Shown one piece after another: positions 39,526 to 55,272 of a DNA stretch of 64,000 bases; the stretch's first letter is position 1; the number at the start of each line of letters is the position of its first letter. A model generated the notes under the pieces. The model was not told where the DNA came from. It worked only from the letters and a program-made list of their open reading frames with translations, and made no database searches. Source of the stretch: an uncultured Thermoleophilia bacterium (GTDB lineage: Bacteria; Actinomycetota; Thermoleophilia; RBG-16-64-13); assembly GCA_963749535.1 (NCBI GenBank), contig CAVVNF010000021.1, forward strand, positions 3,413-67,412. Direction: 5' to 3'. Made by a program: the position numbers and the translations under genes.

Positions 39526-40884
39526 GTGAATCTTTCCAGGAGGACCGACGTGAAGTGTTGGGCAGGGCGCTCAGTTCTCTTGTTGCGAATACTCGCCGCG
39601 TGTCTCGCCGCATCCGCTGCACTTCTGCTTTTCGGTTGCGGCCAGGCCTCGCCGTCCGCTGAGTCCTCGTCTTCCGCTCATTCTCTGCAATCCACCCAGT
39701 CTTCACTTTCGGTCGGCTCCGCTGGCAGCCGACCGATATCCGGCAAGCCCTTCGAGATCTATCGCGTCACGGCCCAAGAGGACTTCTGGGAGAGTTGGAT
39801 CTCGGGAGATACAGTCGTTTGGCTCGAAAGTCCAGGACCGGGGACCGGCGCCGGTTACGGCATGATCTCCGCCGCGGCAAGCTCCGGCACCATCCTTCGC
39901 TCCTGGTCGCCGGAGACCGGAAAAGTCGAAGATGTCCCCGGCTCCAAGCTCGCAGCCCCAGATCTGCCGCCCGAAGGCGCCACGTACATGTCGACACTAC
40001 CGAGTTCCTGGGCTGCCGTCCTTTCCGGCGGCACTGGAACTCCGAAGGTCGTCTGGGCGGAAGGACCGAAGGAACTCGGGGACAACTACATCTTTCGCGG
40101 GCTCTGGAGCTGGGTCCCCGGCACCGAGCCGAAGCAGCTTCTCCCCGAGTCTTTCGGCTCTAGCACCCATCTTGCCGCCGGAGACGCGCTCGCCATATTC
40201 GTTCCCTCTGCTGCCTTCCTTTCTCACCCGCAGAATCATGACCCATCTGACCCGGCTAGTTGGCAGAAGGTCCTACTCATGACAGCGAACATGGATGCCC
40301 CGATCGAGGTCGACCCCTCCCACCCCGAACTGCCTGCTTCAGCCTTAGAGGGACTTTCCCCCTACTTCTCGTTCTGGTCGGGGACGTCGCCGGGCCAAGA
40401 CGTCTACGATCTGCGGACCGGTGCCAAGCTCGCGGTCCGCGTACCGGACCAGGGTTCGCTCATAGCCGGTCACTGGGCGGCCTCGTACAAAACTGATCCG
40501 TCCTTCGGCCGCACGAACAACGTGGATATCGTCCTCACCGACTTGGAGACGGGCGAGTCGAAGACAGTGACGAGCTTCGGCGTCGAGCAGTACTACTCGC
40601 CCGTTTTCGCGCTGAGCGCGGACTGGTTGGTAGTCCTGAAGCCAGGCAAGGAAGTCCCGACCAACGTCGACTCGACCACCACTCTCCCGGACCAGCACAT
40701 CGGCGCCGACCTGGTCGCCGCAGGCCCGGAGAGCCAGCGCAGTCCGCGCCAAAGCGGCACCTGCCGAGCGAGTGGCTCGAGCTACCCCACCCGGTGCTCT
40801 TTGCGCACCACCTTACGCGCCCCGGCGTGCCACGACGTGCTCCAATCCTTGGGCGGAACCACTTCATCCAGCCGGTCCAGCTGA
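39526..40884 (+). CDS. secreted lipoprotein, hypothetical (3' end uncertain)
   Basis: 452-aa ORF with a signal peptide and lipobox (AASAALLLFGCGQ), then a Ser-rich linker. The last ~35 codons overlap the convergent metV gene and look non-native. Confidence 0.6.
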   Translation: MNLSRRTDVKCWAGRSVLLLRILAACLAASAALLLFGCGQASPSAESSSSAHSLQSTQSSLSVGSAGSRPISGKPFEIYRVTAQEDFWESWISGDTVVWLESPGPGTGAGYGMISAAASSGTILRSWSPETGKVEDVPGSKLAAPDLPPEGATYMSTLPSSWAAVLSGGTGTPKVVWAEGPKELGDNYIFRGLWSWVPGTEPKQLLPESFGSSTHLAAGDALAIFVPSAAFLSHPQNHDPSDPASWQKVLLMTANMDAPIEVDPSHPELPASALEGLSPYFSFWSGTSPGQDVYDLRTGAKLAVRVPDQGSLIAGHWAASYKTDPSFGRTNNVDIVLTDLETGESKTVTSFGVEQYYSPVFALSADWLVVLKPGKEVPTNVDSTTTLPDQHIGADLVAAGPESQRSPRQSGTCRASGSSYPTRCSLRTTLRAPACHDVLQSLGGTTSSSRSS

Positions 40885-41453
40885 TCGATGCTCTTGAGGC
40901 GCGTGTAGATGAGTTGCCAGGCACAGGGGCGATCCGGGTCCACCTCGCAGTGCGTCTCGGTCGAGCCCCCGCAGGGGCCGTTCAGGAGCCGCTTGGCGCA
41001 GCGCGTGACGGGGCAGATGCCGCCGAACTGGGCCAGCATGCAGTCGCCGCAGCCCAGGCATTTCTCGGTCCAGATCGCCTGCTCCTCCAGAGTCCCCATG
41101 AACTGGGTGTTGAGTCCGGCGTAGACGGGCTTGTCGGGGAATCTCTCGGCGATGGCCTGCACGCCCACGCCGCAGCCGAACGAGACGATGGCGTCGACGT
41201 CAACCGCCGGCTCCGCCAGATCCTTGATGAATTCGTTCTCGCACTGCCGCTCGATGGTCACCTGGGTCAGCTCCAGGGCTTCGCCGTCAAGCCTGCGCGC
41301 CATGCGGATGGCGTAGGAGGCAATGCCCACCTCACGCTCACCACCGGCCAGGCATACCGTGACGCAGGTGCCACAGCCCACGAACAGCACCTTGCTGTGA
41401 CCCGCGATGAGGTTCTTCACCTCGGTGATCGATTTCGGGGAAGCGACGATCAT
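40782..41453 (-). CDS. metV: methylene-THF reductase-associated zinc-ribbon/Fe-S subunit MetV (MTHFR C-terminal-domain family)
   Basis: 223-aa ORF with cysteine clusters (GCGTCVTVC, CLGCGDC) and the hallmark LLNGPCGG motif. It shares an ATGA start/stop overlap with mvhD. Confidence 0.85.
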   Translation of the reverse strand: MIVASPKSITEVKNLIAGHSKVLFVGCGTCVTVCLAGGEREVGIASYAIRMARRLDGEALELTQVTIERQCENEFIKDLAEPAVDVDAIVSFGCGVGVQAIAERFPDKPVYAGLNTQFMGTLEEQAIWTEKCLGCGDCMLAQFGGICPVTRCAKRLLNGPCGGSTETHCEVDPDRPCAWQLIYTRLKSIDQLDRLDEVVPPKDWSTSWHAGARKVVRKEHRVG

Positions 41454-41947
41454 GATGTTCCTTCACTTTCCAATTGCCGGGTCTCCCTGAGCGGGCTCGG
41501 CCCCAGCGCCTTGACCGTGTCAACCATCTCCTGCACGCTCTCGACGAAGGTGGGGGCCATGGCGGCCGAAAGGTTCACCATCTTGAGCCGTTCGTCCCCG
41601 ACGCCGATCTCGGCGAGCATCTCGCGGATGCGGTCCGTGCGCTTGCGCGCGCGCAGGTTGCCCTCGAGGAAGTGGCAACCCCCTTCCAGGCAACCAGCCA
41701 CAAGAATCCCGTCGATGCCCTTCAGGAAAGCCTCCAGGATATGCTCCATCTCGATCTTGCCGGTGCACGGCGCGTGGATGATGCGAACGTTGGCCGGGTA
41801 CTGCATCCGCTTGGAGCCCGCAAGGTCCGCCGCGGCATACGCACAGTAGTTGCAGCAGAAGGCGATGATCTCGGGTTCCCAGTCGGCGCCGAGCGTCGCC
41901 GCGGTCGCGGCCGCTTGCATCATCTCGGGCATCACAGCCTCGCTCAT
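41450..41947 (-). CDS. mvhD: MvhD/FlpD-like [2Fe-2S] electron-transfer subunit
   Basis: Start placed at ATG 41947 (MSEAVMPEMM), forming an ATGA overlap with the hdrA stop. The track ORF extends to 42148. Motifs: IIAFCCNYCAYAAADLAG, IHAPCTGKIE and LVAGCLEGGCHFLEGN. Confidence 0.85.
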   Translation of the reverse strand: MSEAVMPEMMQAAATAATLGADWEPEIIAFCCNYCAYAAADLAGSKRMQYPANVRIIHAPCTGKIEMEHILEAFLKGIDGILVAGCLEGGCHFLEGNLRARKRTDRIREMLAEIGVGDERLKMVNLSAAMAPTFVESVQEMVDTVKALGPSPLRETRQLESEGTS

Positions 41948-44900
41948 AGCCGCGCTCCATCCACCAACAGCTCGTCCAGCATGGCGACCAGCGCCTCGTC
42001 TTCCTGGTGCTGCAGGGTGATCGTCCTGGCCGGGCAGGAGGCCGCGCAACTGCCGCAGCCCATGCACATCGCGCCCTGGATCTCGGCCTTCATAAGCTCG
42101 TTGATCATGGGAGCGCCGTATGGGCAGACCTTGACGCAGGTGGCGCACGCCACGCAGTTCTCCGGATCGACCTTGGCCACCTGTCCGGGGATCTCAAGGA
42201 ACGCCTTGGACAGGACCGTCGTGGCTCGTCCGACTGTAGCCTGGGCCTGGGCGATGGTCTCGTCCATGAACCGGGGCGAGTGGGCTAAGCCGCAGAGAAA
42301 CTCGCCCTCGTTGGCCAGATCCACCGGCCGGAGCTTGGGATGCGCCTCGAGGAAGAATCCGTCGGCGGTGAGGGCACTGCGCAGCAGTCCGGACAGCACC
42401 GGGTTGCCGGCGGCCGGAGCAATGCCGGTGGAGAGCACCAGCAGATCGGGCCGCAGCACCAACTCGCGGTTGCTCGACGCGTCGTGCACGGTCACCTGGA
42501 GCCGTCCGCCTTCCTCGACCACGATCGGGTCGCCCTTTTCGGGATGGCGCACGAACAAGATCCCTTCTTCTCGGGCCTTCTGGAAGAACAGCTCCCGGAA
42601 TCCGTACGTTCGGATGTCCCGCCCCAGTACCGCCACGTTGGCGTCGGGCACAAGGCGCTTGATCTCCAGCGCGTTCTTGACCGCTTCGGAGCAGCACACC
42701 CGGCTGCAATAGCCGTGCTCCTCGTTGCGGCTCTCCACGCACTGGATCATCACCACGGTGGGACTCTTCTTGCCTTGCAGCTCAGGCGGAAGATCGCCCC
42801 CGGCCAGCACGGCCTCCAGCTTGCTCTGGGTAGTCACGTGCGGGTTCTTGCCGTTGAGGTACAGGTCGGTGGAGCGCTCCTGGCCGCCCGTCGCGACAAT
42901 AACGACTCCGTGACTGATTGGCAGCTCGCTCCCGGCCACGTTGAGAACGCTCTTGAAGTTGCCGACGTGTCCGGTGATGCTCGCAGCGGTGGTGCTCAGA
43001 TAGACCTCGATGCCGGGATGGGCTTCGACCTTGTCCACCAATCGCTGAAGATACGCCTCAACGTCGGCACCCTCGAGCGTGGTGTGCACATCGCGAAGCA
43101 ATCCGCCCAGGGCGGGCTCCTTCTCCACCAAGTGCACGTCGAACCCTTGGTCGGCGATGCCCAGCGCCGCGGTCATGCCGGCCAGTCCGCCGCCCAGGAT
43201 GAGCGCTGAGGCCGTCACCGGCAGTCGCCCGGTCTGCAGGGCCCTCAGATGCCGCGCCCGTGCCACCGCCATAGCCATCAGGTCGACGGCCTTTTCGGTA
43301 GCGGCGACGGGGTCGTCCTTGTGGACCCAGGAACATTGGTCGCGGATATTGGTCATCGCGAACAAGTACTGGTTCAGCCCGCTCTCGCGCAGCGTCTCCT
43401 GGAAGAGGATCTCGTGGGTCCGCGGCGAGCAGGAGGCCACGACCAGCCGGTTGAGCCGGTGCTTCTCGATCATGTCCTTGATGTGCTGCTGGTTGGTGTC
43501 CGAGCAGGTGTACATGCTGGCTTCGGCGTGACGCACGTTGGGCATGAGGGACGCCCTCCGGGCCACTTCCTCCACGTCGATGACCGACGCGATGTTCTGG
43601 CCGCAGTGGCAGATGAACACGCCCACCCGCGGCGCTTCGTCGGTGGTATCGCGCTCCCAGGGGTATTCGTGCCGCTGGATCAGATTGCCGCGGGCTTGGG
43701 CCAGTTGGTCCATGGCGCACGCCGCGGCCGCCGACGCCTGGGCCACCGATTCGGGGATGTCCTTCGGCTCCTGGAATGCTCCGGCCACGTAAAGGCCCGG
43801 TTTGGACGTCGCCAGCGGAGCCAGCCGCTCGGTCTGGGCAAAGCCGAACTCGTTGAGCTCCAACCCCAGCCGTCCAGCGGTTTGCCGGACACTGGCGGGA
43901 ACCTGCATGCCCACGCTGAGCACCACCAGGTCGAACTCCTCCTGCCGTTCGATCCCCGCCTCGTCGAAGTAGCGTATGCGCGGGTTCTTAGTGCCGGGCA
44001 TCTCGACCACCCGCGAGGGGATGGCCCGGATGTACTTCACACCGTGCTCGTCGCGAGCGCGGTTCACGTAGCTATCGAACTCCTTGCCGAAGGCGCGCAC
44101 GTCCATGCAGAAGATGGATACTTCCAAATTCTGGCCACGCGCGTGCTCTAAGGCGACCATGGCCTCCTTGGTGGCGCTCATACAGCAGATGGACGAGCAA
44201 TATCCGTTGCCTCGGGCGGCGTCGCGGCTGCCGACGCATTGGATGAACGCGATGCGTTCTACCTCACCGCCGTCCGAAGGCCGCTGGACATGTCCGCCGG
44301 TGGGACCCGCGGCCGAGAGCATGCGCTCGAATTGGACGCTGGACAGCACGTTCGCGTAGCGCCCGTGGCCGAACTCCCCGCGCAGAGAACCCTGGAACTC
44401 CTCGAAGCCGGGAGTCAGGATCACACTGCCGGCATCGATCTCGATCTCCTCGGGTTGCTGGTCGTGACACACCGCGCCGGCCGTGCAGACCTTGACGCAC
44501 TGCATGCATTCACTGCAAAGTCCGCAAGCGAGACAACGCTTGGCCTCCGCGACGGCCTGATCCACGCTGTAGCCCAGGTCGATCTCGGTGAAGCCGTCCA
44601 CGCGCCCAGATGGGTCGGCTTGCGGCATCTTCACGCGCTCCTGCCGCGGGGCGTCGGGCGTGGGGTTCTTGGCCTGCTCCACCGGATTCTCGGCCTCCGC
44701 CGCGCCGGAAGTCGCTGCCAGCTTGGCCCCTCGTAGGTAGGCGTCGATGGCCTCGGCGGCCTTGTGACCGTGCGCCATTGCATCGACCATAGAGGCCGGT
44801 CCCAGCACCGCGTCGCCGCCTGCGAACAGACCCGGGACGCCGGTGGCGAGCGAATCTTGGTCGGCCACGATCCGCCCGCCGGGGCCGGTGGCCACGCCCA

Positions 44901-46530
44901 GCCCGGCTGAGTCGATTCCCTGGCCGATGGTAACGATCACCGTGTCAGCAACCAGAACGGCGGTCCGCAGATCGTCGAACTGGGGATTGAAACGCCCCTG
45001 CTCGTCGAACACGCTGGTGCAGGCCCGGAAGGACACTCCCGACACCTTGCGCCCGCTCGTCTCGATCCGCGTCGGCCCGAGGCTGTTGTGGAAGACGACT
45101 CCCTCCTCAAGCGCCTCGGCTGCCTCCCAGGAGTGGGCCGGCATCTCCGCGCGACTCTCGAGACACGCCAGATGTACCGAAGACACACCGGGCAGCCGGC
45201 GGGCGCAACGCGCGGCATCCATGGCGACGTCGCCGCCGCCGATAACCAAGACGGTGGACCCGAGAGCCGGTGTCTCACCACTGTTGACCCGGCGCAGGAA
45301 ATCGAGACCCTCCCAGACGCCCGTAGCCTCTTCGCCGGCGATGCCCAGTTTCCGGCTCACCCAGGCTCCCGGCGCTGCGAAGACAGCTTTGAACCCGGAC
45401 TCCAGGAGACCCGCCGGGTCGGCGACGCGCGTGCCCGTCTTGGCCTCCACGCCCAAGTCGAGGATGTACTGGATCTCCTTGTCCAAGACGTCCTTGGGCA
45501 GTCGGTAGCTGGGAATGCCGTATCGCAGCATGCCCCCCAGGTGCGGCTGAGCCTCGAACAAGGTCACGCCATAGCCCAACAGGGCCAGGTCGGAGGCCGC
45601 CGTCAGGCCGGCCGGGCCGCCGCCGATGACTGCGACCTTGGCATCCAACTTGACGGCGGCGGGCTTGGCCGGCGGATACTCGCTCGGATTCGACTCAATG
45701 TAGTCGGCGACGAACCGCTTGAGATCGCGCACAGACACGGCCTCGTCGATCTCGCCGCGATTGCAGCTATCTTCGCAAGGATGCTGGCAGACCCGTCCGC
45801 ACGCAGCCGGGAGCGGGCAGCGCTCACGGACCAGCTCGTAAGCCTCCTTGAACTTGGACGCGGCAATGAGAGCCACGTAGCCTTGAGCGTTGACGCCGGC
45901 GGGACAGGATGACTTGCACGGCGCGCGTCCCGCGGCCTTAGAGATACCGAAGACGTTCGGAATCGCCTGTGGGTAGGGGCGGAAGATCGCCTTCCGCGTG
46001 CCAAGCCGGCGGTCGAACTCGCTTGGCAGATCGACCGGGCAGGCATCGGTGCAATCACCGCATGCGTTGCATTTGGCCAGATCCACGTAGCGCGGGTTCT
46101 GGCGCAGCTTCACCTTGAAGTTGCCCGGCTCGCCCGAGATCCCCTGCACGTCGGCCAGCGTGATGATTTCGATGTTCTTGTTCCGCGCGCATTCCACCAG
46201 CTTGGGCGAGATGATGCACATTGCGCAGTCGCCGGTGGGGAAGGTCTTGTCCAGTTGTGCCATCCTCCCACCGATCGCGGGCGAGGAGTCCACCAGATAG
46301 ACTTTGAAACCGCTCTCGGCGAGGTCCAGGGATGCCTGAATGCCGGTGATGCCGGCTCCGCAGACGAGTACGGCGCCTACGGCCTCGGGGCCGTTGGCTC
46401 CATTCCCATTCGGTCCCTTCCCGTTGCCTCCGGTGTGGCCGCTCATGGCCGCACCTCGGCCTTGGTTCGTGCCTCGGCCCTGTTTCGTGGCTCGGCCCTG
46501 TTTCGTGGCTCGGCCCTGTTTCGTGCTCAC
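41944..46530 (-). CDS. hdrA: giant HdrA-like flavoprotein: HdrA module interrupted by a GltD/NfnB-like NAD(P)H oxidoreductase module, followed by a second complete HdrA module
   Basis: 1528-aa uninterrupted ORF. aa ~50-200: FAD fold (VLVCGAGITGIQASLDLAESG) plus a ferredoxin motif (CNACGDCTDACP). aa ~200-605: GltD-type N-terminal Fe-S region (RERCPLPAACGRVCQHPCEDSCNRG) and two dinucleotide folds (VAVIGGGPAGLTAASDL...GMLRYGIPSYRLPK; VLVIGGGDVAMDAAR; LFAGGDAV). aa ~660-950: rest of HdrA-1 (FIQCVGSRDAARGNGYCSSICC). aa ~965-1528: HdrA-2 (VFICHCGQNI, ILGGGLAGMTAALG, MIQCVESRNEEHGYCSRVCC, C-terminal 2x[4Fe-4S] CVACATCVKVCP / CMGCGSCAASCP). Confidence 0.9.
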   Translation of the reverse strand: MSTKQGRATKQGRATKQGRGTNQGRGAAMSGHTGGNGKGPNGNGANGPEAVGAVLVCGAGITGIQASLDLAESGFKVYLVDSSPAIGGRMAQLDKTFPTGDCAMCIISPKLVECARNKNIEIITLADVQGISGEPGNFKVKLRQNPRYVDLAKCNACGDCTDACPVDLPSEFDRRLGTRKAIFRPYPQAIPNVFGISKAAGRAPCKSSCPAGVNAQGYVALIAASKFKEAYELVRERCPLPAACGRVCQHPCEDSCNRGEIDEAVSVRDLKRFVADYIESNPSEYPPAKPAAVKLDAKVAVIGGGPAGLTAASDLALLGYGVTLFEAQPHLGGMLRYGIPSYRLPKDVLDKEIQYILDLGVEAKTGTRVADPAGLLESGFKAVFAAPGAWVSRKLGIAGEEATGVWEGLDFLRRVNSGETPALGSTVLVIGGGDVAMDAARCARRLPGVSSVHLACLESRAEMPAHSWEAAEALEEGVVFHNSLGPTRIETSGRKVSGVSFRACTSVFDEQGRFNPQFDDLRTAVLVADTVIVTIGQGIDSAGLGVATGPGGRIVADQDSLATGVPGLFAGGDAVLGPASMVDAMAHGHKAAEAIDAYLRGAKLAATSGAAEAENPVEQAKNPTPDAPRQERVKMPQADPSGRVDGFTEIDLGYSVDQAVAEAKRCLACGLCSECMQCVKVCTAGAVCHDQQPEEIEIDAGSVILTPGFEEFQGSLRGEFGHGRYANVLSSVQFERMLSAAGPTGGHVQRPSDGGEVERIAFIQCVGSRDAARGNGYCSSICCMSATKEAMVALEHARGQNLEVSIFCMDVRAFGKEFDSYVNRARDEHGVKYIRAIPSRVVEMPGTKNPRIRYFDEAGIERQEEFDLVVLSVGMQVPASVRQTAGRLGLELNEFGFAQTERLAPLATSKPGLYVAGAFQEPKDIPESVAQASAAAACAMDQLAQARGNLIQRHEYPWERDTTDEAPRVGVFICHCGQNIASVIDVEEVARRASLMPNVRHAEASMYTCSDTNQQHIKDMIEKHRLNRLVVASCSPRTHEILFQETLRESGLNQYLFAMTNIRDQCSWVHKDDPVAATEKAVDLMAMAVARARHLRALQTGRLPVTASALILGGGLAGMTAALGIADQGFDVHLVEKEPALGGLLRDVHTTLEGADVEAYLQRLVDKVEAHPGIEVYLSTTAASITGHVGNFKSVLNVAGSELPISHGVVIVATGGQERSTDLYLNGKNPHVTTQSKLEAVLAGGDLPPELQGKKSPTVVMIQCVESRNEEHGYCSRVCCSEAVKNALEIKRLVPDANVAVLGRDIRTYGFRELFFQKAREEGILFVRHPEKGDPIVVEEGGRLQVTVHDASSNRELVLRPDLLVLSTGIAPAAGNPVLSGLLRSALTADGFFLEAHPKLRPVDLANEGEFLCGLAHSPRFMDETIAQAQATVGRATTVLSKAFLEIPGQVAKVDPENCVACATCVKVCPYGAPMINELMKAEIQGAMCMGCGSCAASCPARTITLQHQEDEALVAMLDELLVDGARL
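46454..46525 (-). repeat. four tandem 18-bp repeats at the hdrB/hdrA junction, encoding (TKQGRA)-like hexapeptides if translated
   Basis: Plus-strand units: cctcggccttggttcgtg, cctcggccctgtttcgtg, gctcggccctgtttcgtg, gctcggccctgtttcgtg. They sit between the GTG at 46530 (GTGA overlap with the hdrB stop) and an alternative ATG at 46446. Confidence 0.9.
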
Positions 46531-47420
46531 TTTTCGTGCCTCCTGCTTCGTGTCTCAGGCCCGGAGAACCCTATTGATTCCAGAAGTTCTTGCGGCTCCA
46601 CGACAAGGCTTTCGAGCGACACCTCACTCGTTGAGCAACCCATGGCCAGGCCAAGCAATTGCGTGAAATAGAAGATCGGTAGGTTGTACCGGCGTCCGTA
46701 CTTGGCCTCGATGTCCTTCTGCCGCATATCCAAGTTGAGCTGGCAAAGCGGACAGGCGGTCGCGATGCAGCCGACCTCGGCGGCCTGCGCCATCGATAGG
46801 ATCCTGTCGCTCAGTTCCAGGACGATGCTCGAGTCGGCGATGGAGAAGCTCGCCCCGCAGCACTCGGTCTTGTGCGGCCAGTCCACGACCGTGGCTCCGG
46901 CGGTCTCGAGAAGCTGGTCCATCAGCGTGGGGTTCTCCGCGTCGTCGAACTGCGTGACTTCGGGCGGACGCGACAGCAGGCAGCCGTAGTAGCAGGCCAC
47001 CCTGAGCCCAGTTAGCGGGCGGCGGATGGCCGCGGCGACTCCCGGCCCCACGTCCCGGCCCAATATCTCCAACAGATGCCGGACCGGCGTCTGGCCGTCG
47101 TAATCTCCTCCGATCACCTGCGCGACCTTGATGCGCGTGCCGACGTCGCCGGCGATGTGGTGATTGGCCATCTTTAGGCGGCTGTAGCAGGCGGCGCATG
47201 CTACGGCGACAGTCCGCCCGCGAGCCGCACGCAAGTTTTGCGCCGGCAACGCGTCGGCTAGGAGAGGATCGCTGCTGTGGGCGGCAGTCGAACCGCAACA
47301 TATCCAGTCCTCTAGCTCGGGCAGCTCCAACCCCAACTTGGCTGCTACAGCCAGTGTCGAGCCATGGAAATCTTTGGCTGTGCCATCAAGCGAACAGCCC
47401 GGGAAGAAGGTGTAGCTCAA
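46527..47420 (-). CDS. hdrB: heterodisulfide reductase subunit B-like (two CCG domains)
   Basis: Start placed at TTG 47420, preceded by AAGGAGG and forming a TTGA overlap with the hdrC stop. The track ORF extends to 47765. Motifs: YTFFPGCSL, WICCGSTAAH, YYGCLL, KTECCGASFS and ACPLCQLN. Confidence 0.85.
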   Translation of the reverse strand: MSYTFFPGCSLDGTAKDFHGSTLAVAAKLGLELPELEDWICCGSTAAHSSDPLLADALPAQNLRAARGRTVAVACAACYSRLKMANHHIAGDVGTRIKVAQVIGGDYDGQTPVRHLLEILGRDVGPGVAAAIRRPLTGLRVACYYGCLLSRPPEVTQFDDAENPTLMDQLLETAGATVVDWPHKTECCGASFSIADSSIVLELSDRILSMAQAAEVGCIATACPLCQLNLDMRQKDIEAKYGRRYNLPIFYFTQLLGLAMGCSTSEVSLESLVVEPQELLESIGFSGPETRSRRHEK

Positions 47421-48001
47421 GGCTCGCCTCCTTGTGTTGCCCGGCGAAACAGTTTCTCGCGCTCTTTCCGCCCGCCGACCCGCGGGCCCAGCAACGGCAG
47501 TTTGCCCTTTGCCATCATCATGGGCGCCTTGCTGGCATCCTCGAAGAGCCGCCTGGTGCGCAGCTTGAATTCGGCCATCAACCCCAACTCGTACACCCGG
47601 CCGCGCTTGCGAACGCTTTTCAGAAATGCGTCGTTGAACACGGGAACGGCCGTGCCCGCCGCCGCCAGTCCCTCGCTCAGGCTGAGTGCCCGCAGCGCGT
47701 CGTTCATGGCGGGGATGTCCACATTCTGCGGGCAGCGCGTGATGCACGTCTGGCACGACGTGCACTCCCAGATAAAGCGACTGGTGAGCACCGACTCGCG
47801 CTGGTCCATCTGTACAAGCCGTACGACCTCATGTGGTTTGAGATCCCCGCGGTTGGCGACCGGACAGCCGCTGGAGCACTTCGAACATTGCAGGCAGCTC
47901 ATCGGCGAGGCGCCGCTCGAAACCTTCACCTCGCTGGCCAGGCTGCCGCCGATCTCTTCGATCTCTATCGTTACCTGGGTCACCGTCGTTGCCGCGGTCA
48001 T
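47417..48001 (-). CDS. hdrC: heterodisulfide reductase subunit C-like (2x[4Fe-4S])
   Basis: Start placed at ATG 48001 (MTAATTV), forming an ATGA overlap with the upstream stop. The track ORF extends to 48736. Motifs: CLQCSKCSSGCP and CTSCQTCITRCP. Confidence 0.85.
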   Translation of the reverse strand: MTAATTVTQVTIEIEEIGGSLASEVKVSSGASPMSCLQCSKCSSGCPVANRGDLKPHEVVRLVQMDQRESVLTSRFIWECTSCQTCITRCPQNVDIPAMNDALRALSLSEGLAAAGTAVPVFNDAFLKSVRKRGRVYELGLMAEFKLRTRRLFEDASKAPMMMAKGKLPLLGPRVGGRKEREKLFRRATQGGEP

Positions 48002-49407
48002 TTCTTCTCCTCCGACCCAGCCAGCACCGATAACTTGACGGCACTGACCTTGCGATAGACCTCCTGCGGGATCCGAAGCTCGCCGTCGACCCTCAGCAGG
48101 TCCTCCACCCGGATGCCGAATAGTCGCTCGTTCTCTTCCAAATAGCCGCGGATCAGCCGCCAGTCCTTGTCGTCCAGTGGCGAGAACACCCCACCATTGA
48201 GCTGGCGCTCGACCACCTTGTAATGCGGGTCGCGGATATAGATCGCGCCGCCGCTCGCCAGAGAGAACAGGTTGCTGCCCGGGTACGGAGCCGCCTGGGG
48301 AACCATGCGGCCGCATCCGTCGAACTCGATGCCGTTCAGGATGACGAACCCGCCGCCGGCCAGAGGATCCCCGGCCATGAACGACTCCGCCAGGAAGTCG
48401 AGACAGGTGCCGTTGATGACCACCCGTGGTCGTCCCACGGCGTTGATCAACGGCCGGCCCGCCCCGTTGCCCAAGACGAACACGTCGCCGCCCTTGGCGC
48501 CATACATGAAAGTCTGTCCCACGTCGCCGTAGATCACCAGCTTGCCGCGCTTGGCGATCTGGGCCACCTGGTCTTGGGCGTTGCCGTGAATGTGCAGCTC
48601 CAGGCCGTCCATGCCACTGGCGGTGTAATCGCCGTTGGAGCCGTAAAGATCGATGCGCACGCCGTCGGTTCTCGCGCCCAGACCCACTCCGTGGAAGCGT
48701 TGTCCCCGCAGCCGATAGACGACGAACCGCTTCCACCCCGCCCGGTACGCCTCACGCAGCAGGACCGCGTCGCAGTCGTCGCCCTCGGGCGGGAAGCCCT
48801 GGCTATCGAGGCACAGCAGCTCCTCGCCGGACCGCGGAGCCGCCACCCGATCACGGGTGTCCCAGGTGATCCGCCGCCAGAAACCCGCCGTAGGATCGCC
48901 AAAAAGCGGGGCGGCGTCGAAGAGTTGGTCGAGTGTCTCCTCGATCACCTGGATAACCGTCGCGCGGCGTTTGTCTCCGGTCGGGAAGGGCCGGTCGTGA
49001 AGCTTCGTTAGCGTCTCGATGGCCGCGGCGCACGATCGGGAGTTATCCGCCCCTGCCAGCACGGTCTGGCAGAACCGCCGCAGCCGGCCGGCCGGCCAAG
49101 AGGGCATTTCCCGGGCCTCGGCGATCAAAGCCTCCACCTCACCTCGGCGCAGCATTTCATGGATGCCGGCCGCGGTCAGAGCTTGGATGGGCGCACCGCC
49201 GGGCGGCGATCCCTCCTGGTGGCTCTCGATGCCCGCCGGGCCAGTCGTCAAGCCGGTCACCGGGTCAGCCGCCGAGTCAGCCGGTACGTCGCAGCGCACC
49301 GTGCCCGTGTCGCACTTGACCTCGTGGCCGAACTTGTTGGTGCACGAGAGCCGCATGTGCTCGACTGTCGCCGTCGCTCCCCGGCGCCACGGTGAAGATG
49401 AACGCAC
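47998..49407 (-). CDS. GXGXG-motif protein (glutamate synthase alpha-subunit C-terminal domain / FwdC / MgsB family) with ~200-aa N-terminal extension
   Basis: 469-aa ORF. It has a beta-helix repeat region: LRGQRFHGVGLGARTDGVRIDLYGSNGDYTASGMDGLELHIHGNAQDQVAQIAKRGKLVIYGDVGQTFMYGAKGGDVFVLGNGAGRPLINAVG. The 5' end overlaps the upstream amidotransferase ORF by ~130 nt in another frame, so this is either a fusion broken by a frameshift at ~49390 or a separate gene. Confidence 0.75.
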   Translation of the reverse strand: MRSSSPWRRGATATVEHMRLSCTNKFGHEVKCDTGTVRCDVPADSAADPVTGLTTGPAGIESHQEGSPPGGAPIQALTAAGIHEMLRRGEVEALIAEAREMPSWPAGRLRRFCQTVLAGADNSRSCAAAIETLTKLHDRPFPTGDKRRATVIQVIEETLDQLFDAAPLFGDPTAGFWRRITWDTRDRVAAPRSGEELLCLDSQGFPPEGDDCDAVLLREAYRAGWKRFVVYRLRGQRFHGVGLGARTDGVRIDLYGSNGDYTASGMDGLELHIHGNAQDQVAQIAKRGKLVIYGDVGQTFMYGAKGGDVFVLGNGAGRPLINAVGRPRVVINGTCLDFLAESFMAGDPLAGGGFVILNGIEFDGCGRMVPQAAPYPGSNLFSLASGGAIYIRDPHYKVVERQLNGGVFSPLDDKDWRLIRGYLEENERLFGIRVEDLLRVDGELRIPQEVYRKVSAVKLSVLAGSEEKK

Positions 49408-50683
49408 CCCCGTCTGTCGACGAGCCGCCTCGAGCGTTCCAGTATTTGTCGGCCACCGGACAGAAGCGCGGATCGTCCTCCGCCAGGCTCCGCAGAGTTG
49501 CGTCGATGGCCTGCTTTTCCGAGCAGATCAGGCCGATCTGGACTTCGCCGCTGTCCGAGAGCGCGAAGACCTGCGGGCGCAGCATGGCCGTGTCGGTGAT
49601 GCCCAGCAACTGGAACCGGTCGCCCTGGCTGCGGGCGATGATGAAGAACCAGGGACCATCCGGCGACGCATGTATGTGGGTCGCCTGGATCTCCCGGTAA
49701 ATGAGCTGCTTCTCCGGCGGCAGCTTGTCGAAATCCAGCTCGGTGGTGGGAGCCAGCGCCTCGATGATGTACTCGAGTCGATACTTGTAGACGCGGTCCC
49801 ATAGGTCGAAGAGCTGGACGGACACCTCCGTGTCCGTGAGGAACTGCTGCCGGATATTGCGCTGGCGCAAGTACTCGCAGACCGAGTGGTAGTTGGCGAA
49901 GTCGCCGTTGTGTACCAGCGCCTCGTTCATGCCGACGAACGGGTGAGCTCCTCCGGGGTGCCACACGCGGCCCTTGGTGGGATAGCGCTGATGGGCGATC
50001 CACACATGGGCCTTGAAATCCTCGAGTTGGTAGTACTCCACGTTTTGCTCGGCGTATCCCACCATCTTGAAGACCAGCAGATTTCTCGAATGAGAGAGCA
50101 CGAAGGCACGCTTTTCGCCCAGCGACGCGTAGTACTCATCGTTGAGCCGGTAAGAGTTGCGCCACACGAACTCGTCTTCCAGCGCGCGCGGCGCGAGATC
50201 TTGCAGCCCCGTCGCCTCGGCGAAGGTCTTCAGGACACTCGGCTTCACGCGCGCCACATAGCGGTGAACGTCTGGCGGACGGACCTCCAGCCCGGCGATG
50301 TCGCGATAGTCGTCGACGTGCGGCTGCCGCGTGGCCAGGGCGATGTCGAAGTTGGGCAGGATGAACTCCCGCTCCAGCTCGGCATGGCAGTCGGTATCGA
50401 GCAGGGCTATCTGGAGCAGATAGTGACTTGCGAGCATCTCGTCGGTGATGCCCAGTTGCTCGGGAACGAGGCCCGCCGCCGCGATGCCGCCGCCTTTGCC
50501 GTTGCCGCGGTTCTGCATCTGCTTCGACGGCTCGTAGATGAATCGCCCTTTCACCGGCACCGTGCAGGCAAAGCCGGTTACGCCGCACCCGCCTTCCTCT
50601 ACGCGCTCGGATCCGATCGGCTCTTCGGGACCCGAATAGACCTGCGACCGGCTGGCCAACAGACGTTCGGCGGATTCGCTCAC
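49277..50683 (-). CDS. class II (Ntn-type) glutamine amidotransferase-like protein (glutamate synthase domain-1 / MgsA family)
   Basis: Start placed at GTG 50683, forming a GTGA overlap with the upstream stop. The candidate nucleophile Cys sits in EEGGCGVTGFAC after a ~30-aa leader. Other motifs: NRGNGKGGGIAA and AHQRYPTKGRVWHPGGAHPF...ALVHNGDFANY. Confidence 0.75.
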   Translation of the reverse strand: MSESAERLLASRSQVYSGPEEPIGSERVEEGGCGVTGFACTVPVKGRFIYEPSKQMQNRGNGKGGGIAAAGLVPEQLGITDEMLASHYLLQIALLDTDCHAELEREFILPNFDIALATRQPHVDDYRDIAGLEVRPPDVHRYVARVKPSVLKTFAEATGLQDLAPRALEDEFVWRNSYRLNDEYYASLGEKRAFVLSHSRNLLVFKMVGYAEQNVEYYQLEDFKAHVWIAHQRYPTKGRVWHPGGAHPFVGMNEALVHNGDFANYHSVCEYLRQRNIRQQFLTDTEVSVQLFDLWDRVYKYRLEYIIEALAPTTELDFDKLPPEKQLIYREIQATHIHASPDGPWFFIIARSQGDRFQLLGITDTAMLRPQVFALSDSGEVQIGLICSEKQAIDATLRSLAEDDPRFCPVADKYWNARGGSSTDGGAFIFTVAPGSDGDSRAHAALVHQQVRPRGQVRHGHGALRRTG

Positions 50684-52381
50684 GGGGACACCTCCCCGGC
50701 CATGGCCGGCTCGTCGCTGAGGTAGCACAGCACGTCGCTACGCCCTCGAAGCTCGCGGATCGACGCCATCCCCAGGTGCCCGAGCACCACCAGCATCTCC
50801 TCGCGCCAGGCATTGTTGAGGTTGATCAGCCGCTGTGTGGCCCACTCGAGGCTCATCTGCATCATCATTTCGGGGTCGGTGGTAGCGATGCCGCGCGGGC
50901 AGCCCCGGCCGCTCTCGCAGCAGGCACAGCGCACGCAGCCCAAGGCCACCAGCTCGGCCGTGCCGATCACCACGCCGTCGGCGCCCAAGGCGATGGCCTT
51001 CAACGCGTCGTAGGCCGTGCGGATGACCGCCGGAGGCGATTAGCGTGATCTGATCCCGGATTCCTTCGGCGACCAGGAACTTGTGCACCTTGGGGATGGC
51101 GTACTCGATGGGCATGGCGATGTTCTTCTTGGCGATGTCTGGCGCCGCGCCGGTGCCGCCGTAGCTGCCGTCCAGATGGATGATGTGCGCTCCCGCGTAG
51201 TAGCTGCCCACCGCCACCATATCCACGTCGGTGGGCGTCGAGACCTTCACGCTCACCAGACAGTCAGGGTTCACTTCCTTGATCCAGTCCACGTGCTTCT
51301 TGTGGTCTTCCACGCTGTAGACGCTGTGGAAGGGGAACGGGCTGAACAAGGCGTTGCCGGCCACGGCCTCGCGCATGCGGGCGACCGGCGGCGTGTTCTT
51401 GTCGCCCAGCAGATGGCCGCCCAGGCCCGGCTTGGCGCCCTGCGCGTACTTGAACTCCACGATCCGCACGCGCTGGATGGTCTCCTCGCGCACACCGAAC
51501 AGGCCCGTGGCGACTTGCGTGATCACGTGGTCGTCGTAGGGCCTGAGGCGGTCGTGGTACCCGCCCTCTCCAGTGCAGGTGAAGCTGTTCCAGGCCGCAG
51601 CCGCGCGGGCCTTCGCCAGGATCGTGTGGATGCTCACCGAGCCGAAGCTCATCCCGCCCCCGTACATGGGGATGTCGAGATGGACTTGCGGCCGGCCGTC
51701 GCCGCGTCGGTTCAGATCCAGACCCGTGTCGATTTCGACGGCGCTGCCGGGCCGGCGGCGACTCGGCGGCGTGACCGAGGCTGCGCGTCGAGGCGGCGCG
51801 GCGACTACCCGGGCCGGAGCCTTCGATTTCGTCGCTTGGAACTTGAAGCGCAGCCTGTCGAACCCGCCGCCCGAAGCACCGTGCCGATATTCGAGATGCG
51901 GCGGCGCGGCATGCCCGGTGGCGGCCTGATGCCAGGTGGACAGGATCAGATCGCTCGACCAGCGCGGATCGCCCATGCAGTCGGCAGCGGGATTGCGCCG
52001 CATCGTGAGCGCCTTCTGAGGGCACTGCGCCACGCATGACTCGGCCGTCTCCGCGCACTCCGGGCCGATGCACAAATGGTCCTGGGGCCGAAGAGTGAAG
52101 GCATAGCCCTCGGGCTTGACATGCACTCCATGACGGCACACCTCCACGCACCGGCCACACGATGCGCACCGAGCCAGGCGGTCGATCTTGTACTTGCCCA
52201 AGACGTTGCGGTAGCGATCGGGGGCCGGGCGGATCTCCCGGTCGACCTGCCCCTGCGGCCATGCGCTCTGGCCCAGATGCGAAGCCGATGCCTGCGCAGG
52301 CTCGTCCCGGACTTCGGCCGAGACTTCGCCCGCAGCTTCGACCGGGACTTCGCCAGGAATGGTTGCCGCGTCCATCGTCAT
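50680..52381 (-). pseudogene. ferredoxin-fused glutamate synthase FMN-domain (domain-2) protein, catalytic-looking paralogue (one frameshift as assembled, ~51000)
   Basis: Start at ATG 52381, forming an ATGA overlap with the upstream stop. N-terminal Cys motifs: CASCGRCVEVC and CIGPECAETAESCVAQCP. TIM-barrel motifs: IPMYGGGMSFGSVS, VEFKYAQGAKPGLGGHLLG, HLDGSYGGTGAAP and LIASGG. After the shift, ORF 50680..51003 reads ALGADGVVIGTAELVALGC...CCESGRGCPRGIATTDPE. Confidence 0.8.
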
Positions 52382-53802
52382 GCACACACCTGACCCTGAG
52401 ACACGCGGGCCAGATCGCCGAATGCCTCCTTCTCGATATCCTCCATGAAGATGGCTCGTCCCACTTCGCCACGAAGGCGGCGGACTTCGCGGATGCCCAT
52501 GGCGCCCAGCACCTCGATGAGCTGGCTGTGCCACGCGCCCATGAGGTTGACCATGCGCTGGGCAGCGTAGGCAGAATCGCCCGAACCGATCTCGGCCGGG
52601 CAGGCGTTTTCGGAGTTGCATCGGCGGCCCTCACGGCACACCCGGCAGCCCAGAGCCACCAGAAGCGGTGTGTCCACGGCTACCAGGTCGGCCCCGCAGA
52701 TGATCGCCTTGGCCATGTGCTCGGCCAGGGCGATCCCGCCGGAGATGATCAGCGTGACCTCGTCGCGGAGCCCTTCTTTCACCAGTCGCCCGTGGACCTC
52801 GCGGAGGGCGTCCTTGATGTGCCGGCCGGGGCGCCCGTCATCCAGCAGCTCGCGCCCGTGCTGGTCGGCGCAGAGTTGAAAGACCTTGACGCCCGTCCGG
52901 CCCAACTCGACGATGCGGTCGGCTGTCGCGTGACACAGCACCAAGCGGACGGAGACCACCAACTGCTTGTGGGCGGCTTGGATCTCGCCGGCCAACTCCG
53001 CCGTATCCGAACCGTCAACCACTTGCACCATGCGCACGGCTTGGAGGAGGTCCTGGCTCCGTTCGATGTCGTCTTTGCCCAGCAACGGGCACCGCGAACG
53101 GCAGTAACTCTGGCGGCAGCGCGGACGCATCGGCTGCCGGCATCACGGCCACGGAGCTGAGCTTCATGGCCGCCACAGCGCGGGCAGCAGCCATGTGCTC
53201 GCTCTCAACCGGCCAGGCCGGCATGTCTAGGATCGCCGGAAGCTGGATCTCCAGCAGATGGGAGGGCGGAGTGAGCAGCTTGCCGTCGGGGGCGAACCTC
53301 AGGCGCATGGGCTTGGGGCCGATGTCCACCGAGGTGGAGATGTACTCGCGACCGTGGATTCCGTCGCGCGTGGGCCGGACGATCTCCGACATGTCCGTCC
53401 AGATGGAGTCGAAACCAGGGCCGTAGAACCGTCCGCGATAGCCCGCCCCGGAGACGGGGATCCTGCCGGCATCGGACTGGTTCCAGGTGGTGAGAATGAT
53501 GTCGGGCTTCCAGTACTCGTCGCCCATGTCCAGGAACTCCGGGTTGACCGAGATGCTCAGCAGTCCCTTGGTGCAACCCTGGACGCAGGACAGGCAGGCC
53601 TTGCATTCGTTGAGCGTCTGGACCGAGGCCAGCGGGTCGCGGTTGTAGGTCGCTTCGTTCCGGTAGACGTCATAGAGGCAACGCAGCTTGACGCAGTTGG
53701 TGCAGCGGGAGCAGTCCTCGCGCCAGTCGACGTTGCCGAACTTGCCCACCCGGCGGAACCGCGGGCCGTGGGAACGGCGTGAATGTGGTAGCGGTCGGGC
53801 AT
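52378..53802 (-). pseudogene. ferredoxin-fused glutamate synthase FMN-domain-like protein, degenerate paralogue (two frameshifts as assembled, ~53780 and ~53110)
   Basis: ATG 53802 (MPDRYHIH) matches the PDRY segment of the downstream paralogue. It then shifts to ORF 53015..54253 (RFRRVGKFGNVDWREDCSRCTNCVKLRCLYD...CKACLSCVQGC...IPVSGAGYRGRFYGPGFDSIWTDMSE). The C-terminal half is in 52378..53130 (LIISGGIALAEHMAKAIICGADLVAVDTPLLVALGC...ACPAEIGSGD). The GGTGA and KPGxGG motifs are not recognisable. Confidence 0.7.
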
Positions 53803-53814
53803 GCCTACGTCCCC

Positions 53815-54677
53815 TTACGCCAGTCCGGCTGCCTCGATCACCTGGCCGGCAAGCGCTTCGCAGCCGCCGCTGAGGATGTGGATGCCGCGGACGCCCGGCA
53901 TCGTCTTGAGCTTGGCGGCTATCTCGGCTGCCATGGCCAGGCCCTCCTTGGCCGCGTCGGGGGCGCTGGCCAACCGGGCGACCACGGTTTCGTCGAGCGG
54001 TCCGTAGGTCTGCTGTTGCCGCAGGTGCTCGGCCTGCTCGACGCTGGTCAGGGGCAGCACGCTGGCGATGATGGCCGCCCGCTTGTCCAGTCCGGCCGCC
54101 CGAACCGAATCCATCCACCGAGTGAAGCCGGCAAGGTCGAACACCGGCTGCGTGAGCAGGAAGTCCGCCCCGGCCGCGATCTTCTTCTTGAGCCGGAGCA
54201 GGTTCAGCTCCATCGGCTGCTGATGGGGATGGGCCACCGCCCCGACCAGCCATCTCCGCGCGAGATCCAAACCCTTACCATCTGGGCTTGCGCGAGCTGG
54301 GTGGAGTCGATGTCGTTGACCCCGGCCGCCTGGGGACAGACCCCGAGAGACTGGTGATTGCCGCTGAGGCAGAGGATAGCGCCGATGCCCAGTGCCGCGG
54401 CCCCCAGAGCATCGCTCTCCAAGGCGATGCGGTTGCGGTCGCGGGTCACCATGGACAGAACCGCCTCGCGGCCTTCGCGGGCCAGGAGAGCCGCACACGC
54501 CAAGGCCGAACCGTGGATCTCGTCGGGGTTGTCCGCCACCACCACCGCGTCCAGGCTCGGCGACAGCGCGGCCGAGAGCTTCTTGACAGCCTCCGCGCCG
54601 CCGGTGCGCGGCGGCAGGCACTCGGCCGTTAGAACGAGTTTGCCGGAGGTCAATGCCTCGCCGAACTTAGTCTTCAT
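53815..54677 (-). pseudogene. metF: methylenetetrahydrofolate reductase, small acetogen-type MetF (one frameshift as assembled, ~54260)
   Basis: ATG 54677 (MKTKFGEALTSGKLVLTAECLPP...VVVADNP...LSMVTRDRNRIALESDALGAAALGIGAILCLSGNH) in ORF 54204..54785. It continues in ORF 53815..54621 (LVGAVAHPHQQPMELNLLRLKKKIAAGADFLLTQPVFDLAGF...). The start overlaps the upstream gene by 11 nt. Confidence 0.8.
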
Positions 54678-55272
54678 TGGCGTCATCGCTGGTATCCAGT
54701 TCTTGGTAAGGGTCCTCGGCCGCTTCGGGTACATCGATGTCGAAAGGAGTGGGGGCCAGGCCGTCCAGCGCCAGCAACACTGCATCCCGGATGGCCGCGA
54801 CCCGGGCGTCCCCGGCTTCGGCCGTGCAAACCGGCACGGATCTTCCTGCGCCCAGCGCCATGTCTTCGGTGGCAGTGCCAGGCAGGTGAAAGAGCATCAA
54901 ACGCTCCCCTCCAAGCCCAATCTCGTCGAGGATCGCCCGAAGATAGTCCACCCGGCGAGCGCATCGCATGCTGCCTTCCAGGTAGTGACAGTTGTCCTCC
55001 TGGCACGCGACCGCGCAGACCAATCGGGCGCCGGACTCAAATGCCTTCAGGACGTGCTCCGGCTGGATCCGCCCCGTGCAGGGCACCAGCACTTCCCGCA
55101 CCGAAAAGGGCCAATCGAACCTCGGGACGATCGGACGCGACCGATCACCGGAGTTCGGCGCCTCGCTCGGCCGCGCGCAATTCATGCAGACAAAGGCCGT
55201 CACGATCGTGGCGTCGGCGGCGGAGTCGGTCGGCTGCTCAACATCGGAAAGAATCGATGGAGGAGCCATCAA
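54667..55272 (-). CDS. divergent MvhD/FlpD-like protein (first gene of the operon)
   Basis: 201-aa ORF with VTAFVCMNCARP, VLVPCTGRIQPEHVLKAFESGARLVCAVACQEDNCHYLEGS and an acidic C-terminal tail. GAGGAAGGG lies upstream of the ATG at 55269. Confidence 0.7.
   Translation of the reverse strand: MMAPPSILSDVEQPTDSAADATIVTAFVCMNCARPSEAPNSGDRSRPIVPRFDWPFSVREVLVPCTGRIQPEHVLKAFESGARLVCAVACQEDNCHYLEGSMRCARRVDYLRAILDEIGLGGERLMLFHLPGTATEDMALGAGRSVPVCTAEAGDARVAAIRDAVLLALDGLAPTPFDIDVPEAAEDPYQELDTSDDANED

Follow-up and report, generated by a model that had tools for sequence, protein, structure and literature searches.

An HdrA-type reading frame with two flavin modules

The 64,000-nucleotide stretch analyzed here (hereafter designated the window), part of contig CAVVNF010000021.1 from an uncultured Thermoleophilia bacterium, carries on its minus strand a gene for a large homologue of HdrA, a subunit of heterodisulfide reductase (Hdr), in which two HdrA-type flavin modules are joined in one chain and the first of them is interrupted by an NAD(P)H module. 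This gene, hdrA/hdrL (41944..46530, hereafter hdrL), is open throughout its 1528 codons from GTG 46530 to the stop codon at 41944-41946, as an earlier, sequence-only reading of the window had stated, and its open reading frame (ORF) contains no in-frame TGA, hence no selenocysteine. The start site is ambiguous. GTG 46530 overlaps the stop codon of hdrB (GTGA) and is preceded, 8 nt upstream, by AGGAGG; the alternative start, ATG 46446, gives a 1500-residue protein, and the homologues, about 1480-1510 residues long, begin to align near this ATG. The 28 extra codons from GTG 46530 consist of an 18-nt tandem repeat at the hdrB/hdrL junction (46454..46526, no strand; 4.1 copies, 92% matches) and would encode TKQGRA repeats. 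In a 94%-identical relative (L083), the tandem-repeat region is read as a C-terminal extension of HdrB.

The matches of HdrL to HdrA and GltD-like families are far beyond chance. NCBIfam HdrA-type models match at E=1e-197 to 1e-281, HdrA chains of the PDB align at E of about 1e-176 in four collinear pieces, and Pfam detects Fer4_20 (residues 202-280), Pyr_redox_2 (298-588, E=1.6e-48) and two C-terminal 4Fe-4S motifs. The NCBIfam GltD-like NAD(P)-binding model NF009410 covers residues 202-702 above its cut-off. The equivalog cut-offs for methanogen HdrA and HdrA2 are missed (936 versus 1100, 667 versus 1400 and 656 versus 1300 bits), and HdrL is thus a homologue, not an equivalog, of the HdrA of CoB-CoM heterodisulfide reductase.

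The cysteine signatures of the form QCVxSR...YCSxxCC, on which two HdrA flavin modules had been proposed, lie at the residues claimed, with QCVGSR at 764-769 and YCSSICC at 777-783 in the first, and QCVESR at 1263-1268 and YCSRVCC at 1274-1280 in the second. GxGxxG motifs occur at residues 58-63, 303-308 and 1113-1118. The features ascribed earlier to the insert, namely a GltD-type Fe-S region (CPLPAACGRVCQHPCEDSC at 238-256), two dinucleotide-binding folds (the second with GGGDVA at 431-436) and a GIPxYRLPK motif (GIPSYRLPK at 338-346), were likewise all found in place.

Complementary domain composition of the two modules

HdrL was aligned to the solved HdrA structures 5ODC and 8RVU. Residues 60-198 correspond to HdrA 152-290 (start of the domain resembling thioredoxin reductase (TrxR), plus the initial half of the inserted ferredoxin domain), residues 672-945 to HdrA 293-567 (second half of the inserted ferredoxin domain and remainder of the TrxR-like domain), residues 965-1139 to HdrA 2-176 (N-terminal Fe-S domain, then the beginning of another TrxR-like domain), and residues 1383-1515 to HdrA 508-643 (end of the TrxR-like domain and C-terminal ferredoxin domain). 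From this four-piece mapping, residues 199-671 are an insertion within the inserted ferredoxin domain of module A. Profile hidden Markov models and the alignment together bear out the earlier domain parse of two HdrA flavin modules, the first split by an Fe-S/FAD/NAD(P)H module (FAD, flavin adenine dinucleotide).

Module A consists of two parts. The first (residues 53-198; 45937..46374, minus strand; equivalent to 5ODC HdrA 152-290) contains the FAD Rossmann motif GAGITG, the DCAMC motif with C105, the equivalent of Cys197, and the first half of the inserted ferredoxin domain (C154/157/160/164). The second (residues 672-949; 43684..44517, minus strand; 5ODC 293-567) contains the second ferredoxin half (C672/675/678/682), E735, the cluster motif at 764-783 and K788. 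Module A keeps DCxxC and lacks both the N-terminal domain and the C-terminal ferredoxin domain. Module B starts with an N-terminal MvhD-like Fe-S domain (residues 965-1095; 43246..43638, minus strand; 5ODC 2 to about 135) with cysteines C974, C976, C1009 and C1034, followed by a TrxR-like FAD domain (residues 1096-1445; 42196..43245, minus strand) with GGGLAG at 1113-1118, E1239, the cluster motif at 1263-1280 and K1285; the inserted ferredoxin domain and DCxxC are absent from it. The chain ends in a 2x[4Fe-4S] ferredoxin domain (residues 1446-1528; 41947..42195, minus strand) with Cys motifs at 1459-1470 and 1489-1500. The TrxR-like modules A and B share only 24% identity. C102 and C105 are confined to module A and the N-terminal domain to module B; since the two modules complement each other in this manner, every accessory domain is present once in HdrL.

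The TrxR-domain cluster motif C-x12-C-x3-C-C is present twice (765/778/782/783 and 1264/1275/1279/1280), with its cysteines invariant in 57-68 homologues at both places. More generally, the putative cluster cysteines are invariant in 46-68 homologues of 43-52% identity, except for C238, C244 and C1066. The E356/K409 signature of bifurcating HdrA flavins is kept as E735/K788 in module A, where it is invariant (57/57 homologues), and as E1239/K1285 in module B, where 42 of 68 homologues retain E1239 and 55 of 68 retain K1285. Thus the alignment to methanogen HdrA, proposed earlier as a check, finds the Fe-S ligands and the Glu/Lys pairs retained and placed on 5ODC and 8RVU, and the suggestion of two potential bifurcating flavins is plausible, the signature being kept in both modules.

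Distribution of the layout

More than 120 protein clusters, labeled among others Actinobacteria, Bryobacteraceae and Planctomycetota, have the same length as HdrL at 67-98% identity and 97% coverage. The close homologues originate from soil and peat. In a one-genome-per-species scan, 80 further loci (L003-L082, hereafter the distant loci) matched residues 21-1494, approximately, at 43-52% identity. Their hosts are bacteria (Desulfobacterota, Syntrophales, Acidobacteria, Chloroflexota, Planctomycetes, Clostridia and Thermotogae) and archaea (Thermoplasmata, Bathyarchaeia and Archaeoglobi), and 46 of the 80 have uninterrupted ORFs of at least 1350 residues with the motifs in order. A search with a 1200-residue core of HdrL against a library clustered at 50% identity gave 20 representatives of 1404-1532 residues that are collinear with this core. 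The taxonomic survey of the fusion suggested by the sequence-only reading therefore shows a layout widely spread over many lineages of bacteria and archaea; exactly this arrangement recurs in at least 20 clusters at 50% identity, usually accompanied by mvhD and often by metVF.

These data bear on the possibility that the long ORF is an artefact, either a chimera of two neighboring hdrA genes joined in assembly or a gene in decay. The window does hold damaged genes, four frame-disrupted ones beside hdrL and a GGDEF gene with an in-frame TAG (both described below). However, the recurrence of the same layout of about 1500 residues in the >120 independent clusters and in the 46 species-level ORFs rejects a chimera, the 20 representatives are collinear with the core over its whole length, and all cofactor ligands of HdrL are intact, so that an artefact can practically be discounted.

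The representative matches also included many proteins of about 900-1130 residues that correspond to the NfnB-inserted first module only, and double-TrxR proteins of about 950-1050 residues without the insert. These layouts point to a modular family with at least three arrangements.

An NfnB/StnC-like NAD(P)H module inside the ferredoxin domain

The insert (residues 199-671; 44518..45936, minus strand) lies inside the ferredoxin domain of module A, between the equivalents of HdrA residues 290 and 293. The first module is thus split as the sequence-only reading had described, by 473 residues and not by about 400. The Fe-S region of the insert (202-280) carries C205, C209, C244, C248, C252, C256 and K271, its FAD fold lies at 298-332 and its NAD(P)H fold at 431-436. 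An insert devoid of FAD- or NAD(P)H-binding residues was thereby ruled out, the Fe-S, FAD and NAD(P)H sites all being present.

The best matches of the insert are the large subunit of NfnABC (9BOV, 360 bits, 1e-106; 9N5U, 344 bits, about 1e-101), StnC of the StnABC transhydrogenase (8OH5, 322 bits, 4e-95) and NfnB (4YLF, 260 bits, about 1e-76), against 155 bits (about 1e-44) for GltD proper. The GltD models TIGR01317 and TIGR01318 were missed (172 versus 447.7 bits and 207 versus 483 bits, respectively). These results show that the insert is of the NfnB/StnC type rather than GltD. The N-terminal segment of NfnB (R..F.E..LGY...EA.RCL.C) is permuted in HdrL, standing after the flavin domains at residues 632-669 with C666 and C669. 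Because of this displacement, the first cluster of NfnB type is probably built from C205/C209 and C666/C669. StnC and 9BOV have the same permuted arrangement, collinear with the insert. Moreover, K271 of the insert is equivalent to K170 of StnC, a ligand of the FAD-proximal cluster, where NfnB has Glu.

The NAD(P)H site of HdrL and of its close relatives reads CLESR (residues 456-460; window 45151-45165), whereas NfnB, StnC and NfnABC read YRR(T/S) at this site. The YRR motif is kept in 37 of 57 scored distant homologues. Loci with the acidic variant, (C/S)LE(S/K/T/D)R, are linked to metV in 12 of 16 cases, against 12 of 37 for the YRR type. The HdrL family therefore has two NAD(P)H-site variants, of which the acidic one tracks the metVF context. 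In Rossmann folds, an acidic residue at the position of the CLESR type suggests specificity for NADH. Judged from this motif, HdrL probably prefers NADH over NADPH.

Gene context

The gene order on the minus strand is mvhD1-metF-GluS_a-GluS_b-GATase+GXGXG-hdrC-hdrB-hdrL-mvhD2-metV (window 40782-55272). The first gene, mvhD1 (54667..55272), encodes a 201-residue, longer paralogue of MvhD/FlpD and is followed by metF (53815..54686), for the catalytic subunit of methylene-tetrahydrofolate reductase (MTHFR). Three genes related to glutamate synthase come next: GluS_a (52378..53905, start approximate), a divergent second Glu_synthase-domain paralogue; GluS_b (50680..52381), with a ferredoxin-like N-terminus and the flavin mononucleotide (FMN), or synthase, domain of GltB; and a fusion of class-II GATase and GXGXG, domains 1 and 3 of GltB (47998..50683). 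The remaining genes are hdrC (47417..48001; 194 residues, 2x[4Fe-4S]), whose ATG overlaps the stop codon of the preceding gene, hdrB (46527..47420; 297 residues, two CCG domains), whose TTG overlaps the hdrC stop codon and has AAGGAGG upstream, and, downstream of hdrL, mvhD2 (41450..41947; 165 residues, FlpD), whose ATG overlaps the hdrL stop codon (ATGA), and metV (40782..41453; 223 residues, DUF5981/MTHFR C-terminal-like), whose ATG overlaps the mvhD2 stop codon. In total, ATGA, GTGA or TTGA overlaps join the genes at seven junctions, from GluS_a/GluS_b through mvhD2/metV, and the ORFs of mvhD1 and metF overlap by about 20 nt. Thus hdrC, hdrB, mvhD, metV and the frame-disrupted metF are all in the hdrL operon, as in the class of the Moorella enzyme described below. 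A partner gene for NfnA (PyrK-like) or StnAB was not found in the operon.

The identical ten-gene order was found in six loci with HdrL identities of 52-88% (L001, L002, L055, L085, L086 and L087), from genomes labeled Actinobacteria, Acidobacteria, Planctomycetota and Armatimonadota. L001 has 88% HdrL identity, L002 is from Actinobacteria RBG_16_64_13, L085 lies on a 3.56-Mb contig, L086 is from Planctomycetota, L087 from Bryobacteraceae, and L055, with 52% identity, from Armatimonadota. Among the 80 distant loci, mvhD is a neighbor in 69, mvhD together with metV and metF in 33, hdrB in 26 and a GltB-like gene in only one; outside L055, GltB-like genes are confined to the close clade. From these counts, the widespread core consists of HdrL and MvhD, often with MetVF and HdrCB, and the GltB-like genes are one clade's addition.

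The two MvhD paralogues of the operon are about 38% identical, and the clusters of Moorella type are described with one only. MvhD1 may be a connector to the GltB-like proteins or a stand-in for the MvhD-like N-terminal domain absent from module A.

Frame damage in the operon

Comparison with intact orthologues aligning at each site revealed that four consecutive genes are frame-disrupted (48000-54700, minus strand). The metF frame contains 5 inserted nucleotides that the relatives aligned there (L001, L002 and L087) do not share, and GluS_a has lost a net ~50 nt from a Gly-rich linker near 53071-53083. Single-nucleotide insertions break GluS_b near 51025 and the GATase+GXGXG gene near 49363, and not even the 94%-identical L083 has the latter one. 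In contrast, hdrC, hdrB, hdrL, both mvhD genes and metV are intact. In relatives, GATase and GXGXG form one protein of 860-900 residues; the GltB-like genes, called split in the sequence-only reading, accordingly owe part of that split to frame damage. The lesions are either real pseudogenization or assembly errors; the 5-nt and ~50-nt changes resemble true mutations more than errors. If the lesions are real, MTHFR function has been lost in the source organism.

Relationship to known HdrA proteins

A MetFV-HdrABC-MvhD methylene-tetrahydrofolate reductase of Moorella thermoacetica was reportedly described by Mock in 2014. Like the HdrA of that bacterium, HdrL has about 1490-1500 residues, with an N-terminal TrxR-like and ferredoxin part broken by a GltD-type Fe-S/FAD/NAD(P)H domain, a C-terminal HdrA that has the N-terminal domain and the C-terminal ferredoxin domain and lacks the inserted one, and the Glu/Lys pair in both halves; like the complex, its gene is clustered with hdrCB, mvhD and metVF. 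The Moorella protein (162.8 kDa) was described as an HdrA without inserted ferredoxin domain in its C-terminal part (residues 922-1487) and as an extra ferredoxin domain plus a TrxR domain interrupted by a GltD domain in its N-terminal part, with the Glu/Lys pair, the criterion for bifurcating flavins, kept in both TrxR domains, and oxidized NADH with benzyl viologen at 190 U/mg (Kremp et al. 2022, PMC9430772). For the complex, NADH has been given as the donor, with two FAD in HdrA (Buckel and Thauer 2018). The statement of the sequence-only reading that such proteins are biochemically uncharacterized is therefore outdated: Moorella HdrA, with the same described layout, oxidizes NADH and binds two FAD. 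Unlike the Moorella cluster, the present operon has metF at its 5' end, a second mvhD and three glutamate-synthase-like genes, and the host is not an acetogenic Firmicute.

The name HdrL, used correctly in that reading, was given in the Desulfobacterium autotrophicum genome to a "heterodisulfide reductase/glutamate synthase fusion" with an NADH site, followed by mvhD (Strittmatter 2009, PMC2702500), and HdrL was detected in the proteome of Syntrophobacter fumaroxidans (PMC5947623). These proteins resemble ours in being large HdrA/glutamate-synthase fusions with an NADH site and mvhD next to them; they belong with dsr, fdh or hdrABC loci, and selenocysteine is present in some, whereas the present HdrL is linked to metFV and is free of it. 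In archaea, an NfnB-like insertion of about 500 residues in the inserted ferredoxin domain is known from HdrA9-11 of ANME-1, and the complementarity of Cys197 and N-terminal domain in tandem or fused HdrA proteins has been read as the protein being its own heterodimeric partner (Chadwick 2022, PMC9012536). A 2025 survey (PMC12054007) assigns HdrA with two TrxR domains to type II and those with a GltD insert, including class A9-TRX-C, to type III, and proposes that the GltD insert turns the ferredoxin port into an NADH port. In common with these proteins, HdrL has the NfnB/GltD insertion in the inserted ferredoxin domain, an additional TrxR domain and the Cys197/N-domain complementarity, as well as a ferredoxin port proposed to serve NAD(P)H instead. 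The ANME proteins differ in being archaeal, from methane-metabolizing contexts with HdrBC or FdhB, and the complementary halves of HdrL stand in reversed order relative to ANME HdrA3/4.

The methanogen HdrA (5ODC, 8RVU) likewise has the TrxR-like FAD domain, C-x12-C-x3-CC, the N-domain cluster with Cys197 and both ferredoxin domains, but is a homodimer of about 650-residue chains without a nucleotide module and uses ferredoxin as the low-potential partner. To StnC of Sporomusa ovata StnABC (8OH5) and NfnABC (9BOV, 9N5U), the insert is 37-42% identical and collinear over about 475 residues, with the Lys ligand kept. In StnC, the GltD-like domain, also with a Lys cluster ligand, is a non-bifurcating, linear entry wire for NADPH (8OH5), and in StnC and NfnABC alike the module is the nucleotide entry that feeds a separate bifurcating module. 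Those modules use NADPH (YRR) and are fused to NuoG/FdhF-like domains, whereas that of HdrL has CLESR and is embedded in HdrA. A double HdrA with an NAD(P)H module is thus already described from Moorella, sulfate reducers and ANME archaea, and the present HdrL adds little to it. The only novelty, as far as we searched, is the cassette bearing glutamate-synthase-like genes; an incomplete literature search, which is weak negative evidence, returned no description of a GltB-like/Hdr/MetFV cassette.

Proposed function and electron path

From the domain layout and the gene context, we consider it quite likely that an Hdr-type (MetFV-HdrCBA-MvhD) methylene-tetrahydrofolate reductase of the Moorella thermoacetica/HdrL class has HdrL as its HdrA subunit. 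Presumably, a single HdrL chain would serve as its own asymmetric HdrA "dimer", to which module A would contribute a TrxR-like FAD domain, C105 as the Cys197 equivalent and the inserted ferredoxin domain, and module B the N-terminal Fe-S domain, the second TrxR-like FAD domain and the C-terminal ferredoxin domain. The inserted ferredoxin domain, the ferredoxin port in methanogens, would be capped here by the StnC/NfnB-like FAD module. The insert FAD would be reduced by NADH, the nucleotide expected since CLESR stands in place of the NADPH-type YRR, and electrons would then pass through the two [4Fe-4S] clusters of the insert and the clusters of the split ferredoxin domain to the HdrA flavins. 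From there, one branch would lead through the [2Fe-2S] cluster of MvhD and MetV to MetF, for reduction of methylene- to methyl-tetrahydrofolate, and a second branch through HdrC to HdrB and its putative co-substrate. The process may be flavin-based bifurcation or confurcation; a linear entry like that of StnC, with a non-bifurcating insert, would be the simplest model for the HdrL insert. In this clade, the second MvhD and the glutamate-synthase-like proteins probably add further branches to this wire.

Several observations weigh against this assignment. No Wood-Ljungdahl genes were found in the 64-kb window, and with metF frame-disrupted the complex may be non-functional in the source organism. 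The NADH preference is read from one motif. The identity with the Moorella protein was taken from its published domain layout and from Firmicute-labeled homologues. For the Moorella complex itself, the second acceptor was given as unknown (Buckel and Thauer 2018), and bifurcation is still debated. Finally, an AlphaFold2 model of residues 29-965, from a 20-sequence alignment, was poor (mean predicted local distance difference test score 57.7, predicted TM-score 0.36) and was left out of the arguments on cluster geometry and the pseudo-dimer; Foldseek with this model ranked the relatives of the insert as the sequence search had done and only repeats that result.

Among other explanations, the complex could be an NADH-dependent, archaeal-type split glutamate synthase in which the HdrL insert replaces the beta subunit and the Hdr, MvhD and MetFV proteins are accessory. 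The two FMN-domain paralogues and the GATase+GXGXG fusion do lie inside the operon, between metF and hdrC and with overlapping start and stop codons, in an arrangement conserved in the six loci down to the 52% level of HdrL identity. GluS_b matches the FMN domain of GltB structures (E=1.5e-51) and keeps the synthase-site motif KxAQGAKPGxGG and the Cys cluster, and the GATase part keeps the cysteine of N-terminal nucleophile type in CGVTGF as well as HNG, so that the GltB-like genes look like those of an archaeal-type split glutamate synthase. Moreover, neither a separate gltD nor another GltD-like element was found in the operon or the window, which agrees with the claim of the sequence-only reading that the insert is the only one near the GltB-like genes. 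However, the insert is older than the association with GltB: 79 of the 80 distant loci have the insert and no GltB-like neighbor, many of them with metVF instead, and the homologues do not consistently pair with GltB, a GltB-like gene standing beside only one distant locus in 80. The failed GltD cut-offs and the closer kinship to StnC, NfnABC and NfnB likewise speak against a beta subunit, the GltB-like FMN subunits have N-terminal ferredoxin-like domains of their own, and GluS_a is highly divergent, with only 29 bits to GltB. We therefore regard this explanation as unlikely. Of the earlier suggestion that the insert acts as the "missing beta subunit", the lack of any other GltD-like element and the conservation of the cassette stand, and its greater age and far wider distribution than the GltB association, its StnC/NfnB type and its position within the HdrA ferredoxin domain do not fit. 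The insert may instead be the NADH port of the whole complex, with the GltB-like proteins as one fed branch, perhaps via MvhD1.

A third explanation, still less probable and in our view quite improbable, takes HdrL as part of an NAD(P)H:disulfide reductase acting on DsrC or another thiol/disulfide carrier, with HdrB as the main catalytic site and the MetFV link incidental. In its favor, both CCG domains are retained in HdrB, metVF is missing from about half of the distant loci, and a connection of NADH to DsrC or sulfite reduction has been proposed for HdrL of D. autotrophicum (PMC2702500) and S. fumaroxidans (PMC5947623). In the present locus, however, metV and metF belong to the same translationally coupled operon, the window contains no dsr genes, and the NAD(P)H-site variant found here is the one that co-occurs with metV.

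If HdrL belongs to an Hdr-type MTHFR, as we favor, the conserved cassette raises a further, doubtful possibility: in this clade the reductase core might have taken up a split glutamate synthase of archaeal type together with a second MvhD, to form one NADH-fed supercomplex that couples glutamate synthesis to methylene/methyl-tetrahydrofolate chemistry. Glutamate synthesis would then be the high-potential acceptor, coupled through the two HdrA flavins. Such a supercomplex would give the Hdr-type MTHFR a concrete physiological third partner, a matter open for the Moorella enzyme since 2014, and the cassette, if it forms one enzyme, would offer a candidate that can be tested for the role of co-substrate branch in Hdr-type MTHFRs.

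Composition of the operon and other features of the window

The G+C content of the operon is 0.64-0.67, against 0.59-0.62 in its flanks. Operon proteins are 70-88% identical to proteins labeled with different phyla, whereas a flanking MprF-like gene of housekeeping type, after two close matches, has matches of at most 55% identity, labeled Chloroflexi and Actinobacteria, and points to no clear lineage. That the cross-phylum identity of the operon proteins exceeds that of the MprF-like gene suggests that the cassette moves horizontally. No Rfam riboswitch or RNA family was found in the window or upstream of the operon. Elsewhere in the window, a PAS-GGDEF gene on the minus strand has an in-frame TAG at 3089-3091 within the GGDEF domain (...LPFTL*LSVGAASYD...) and is an apparent pseudogene or the result of an error.

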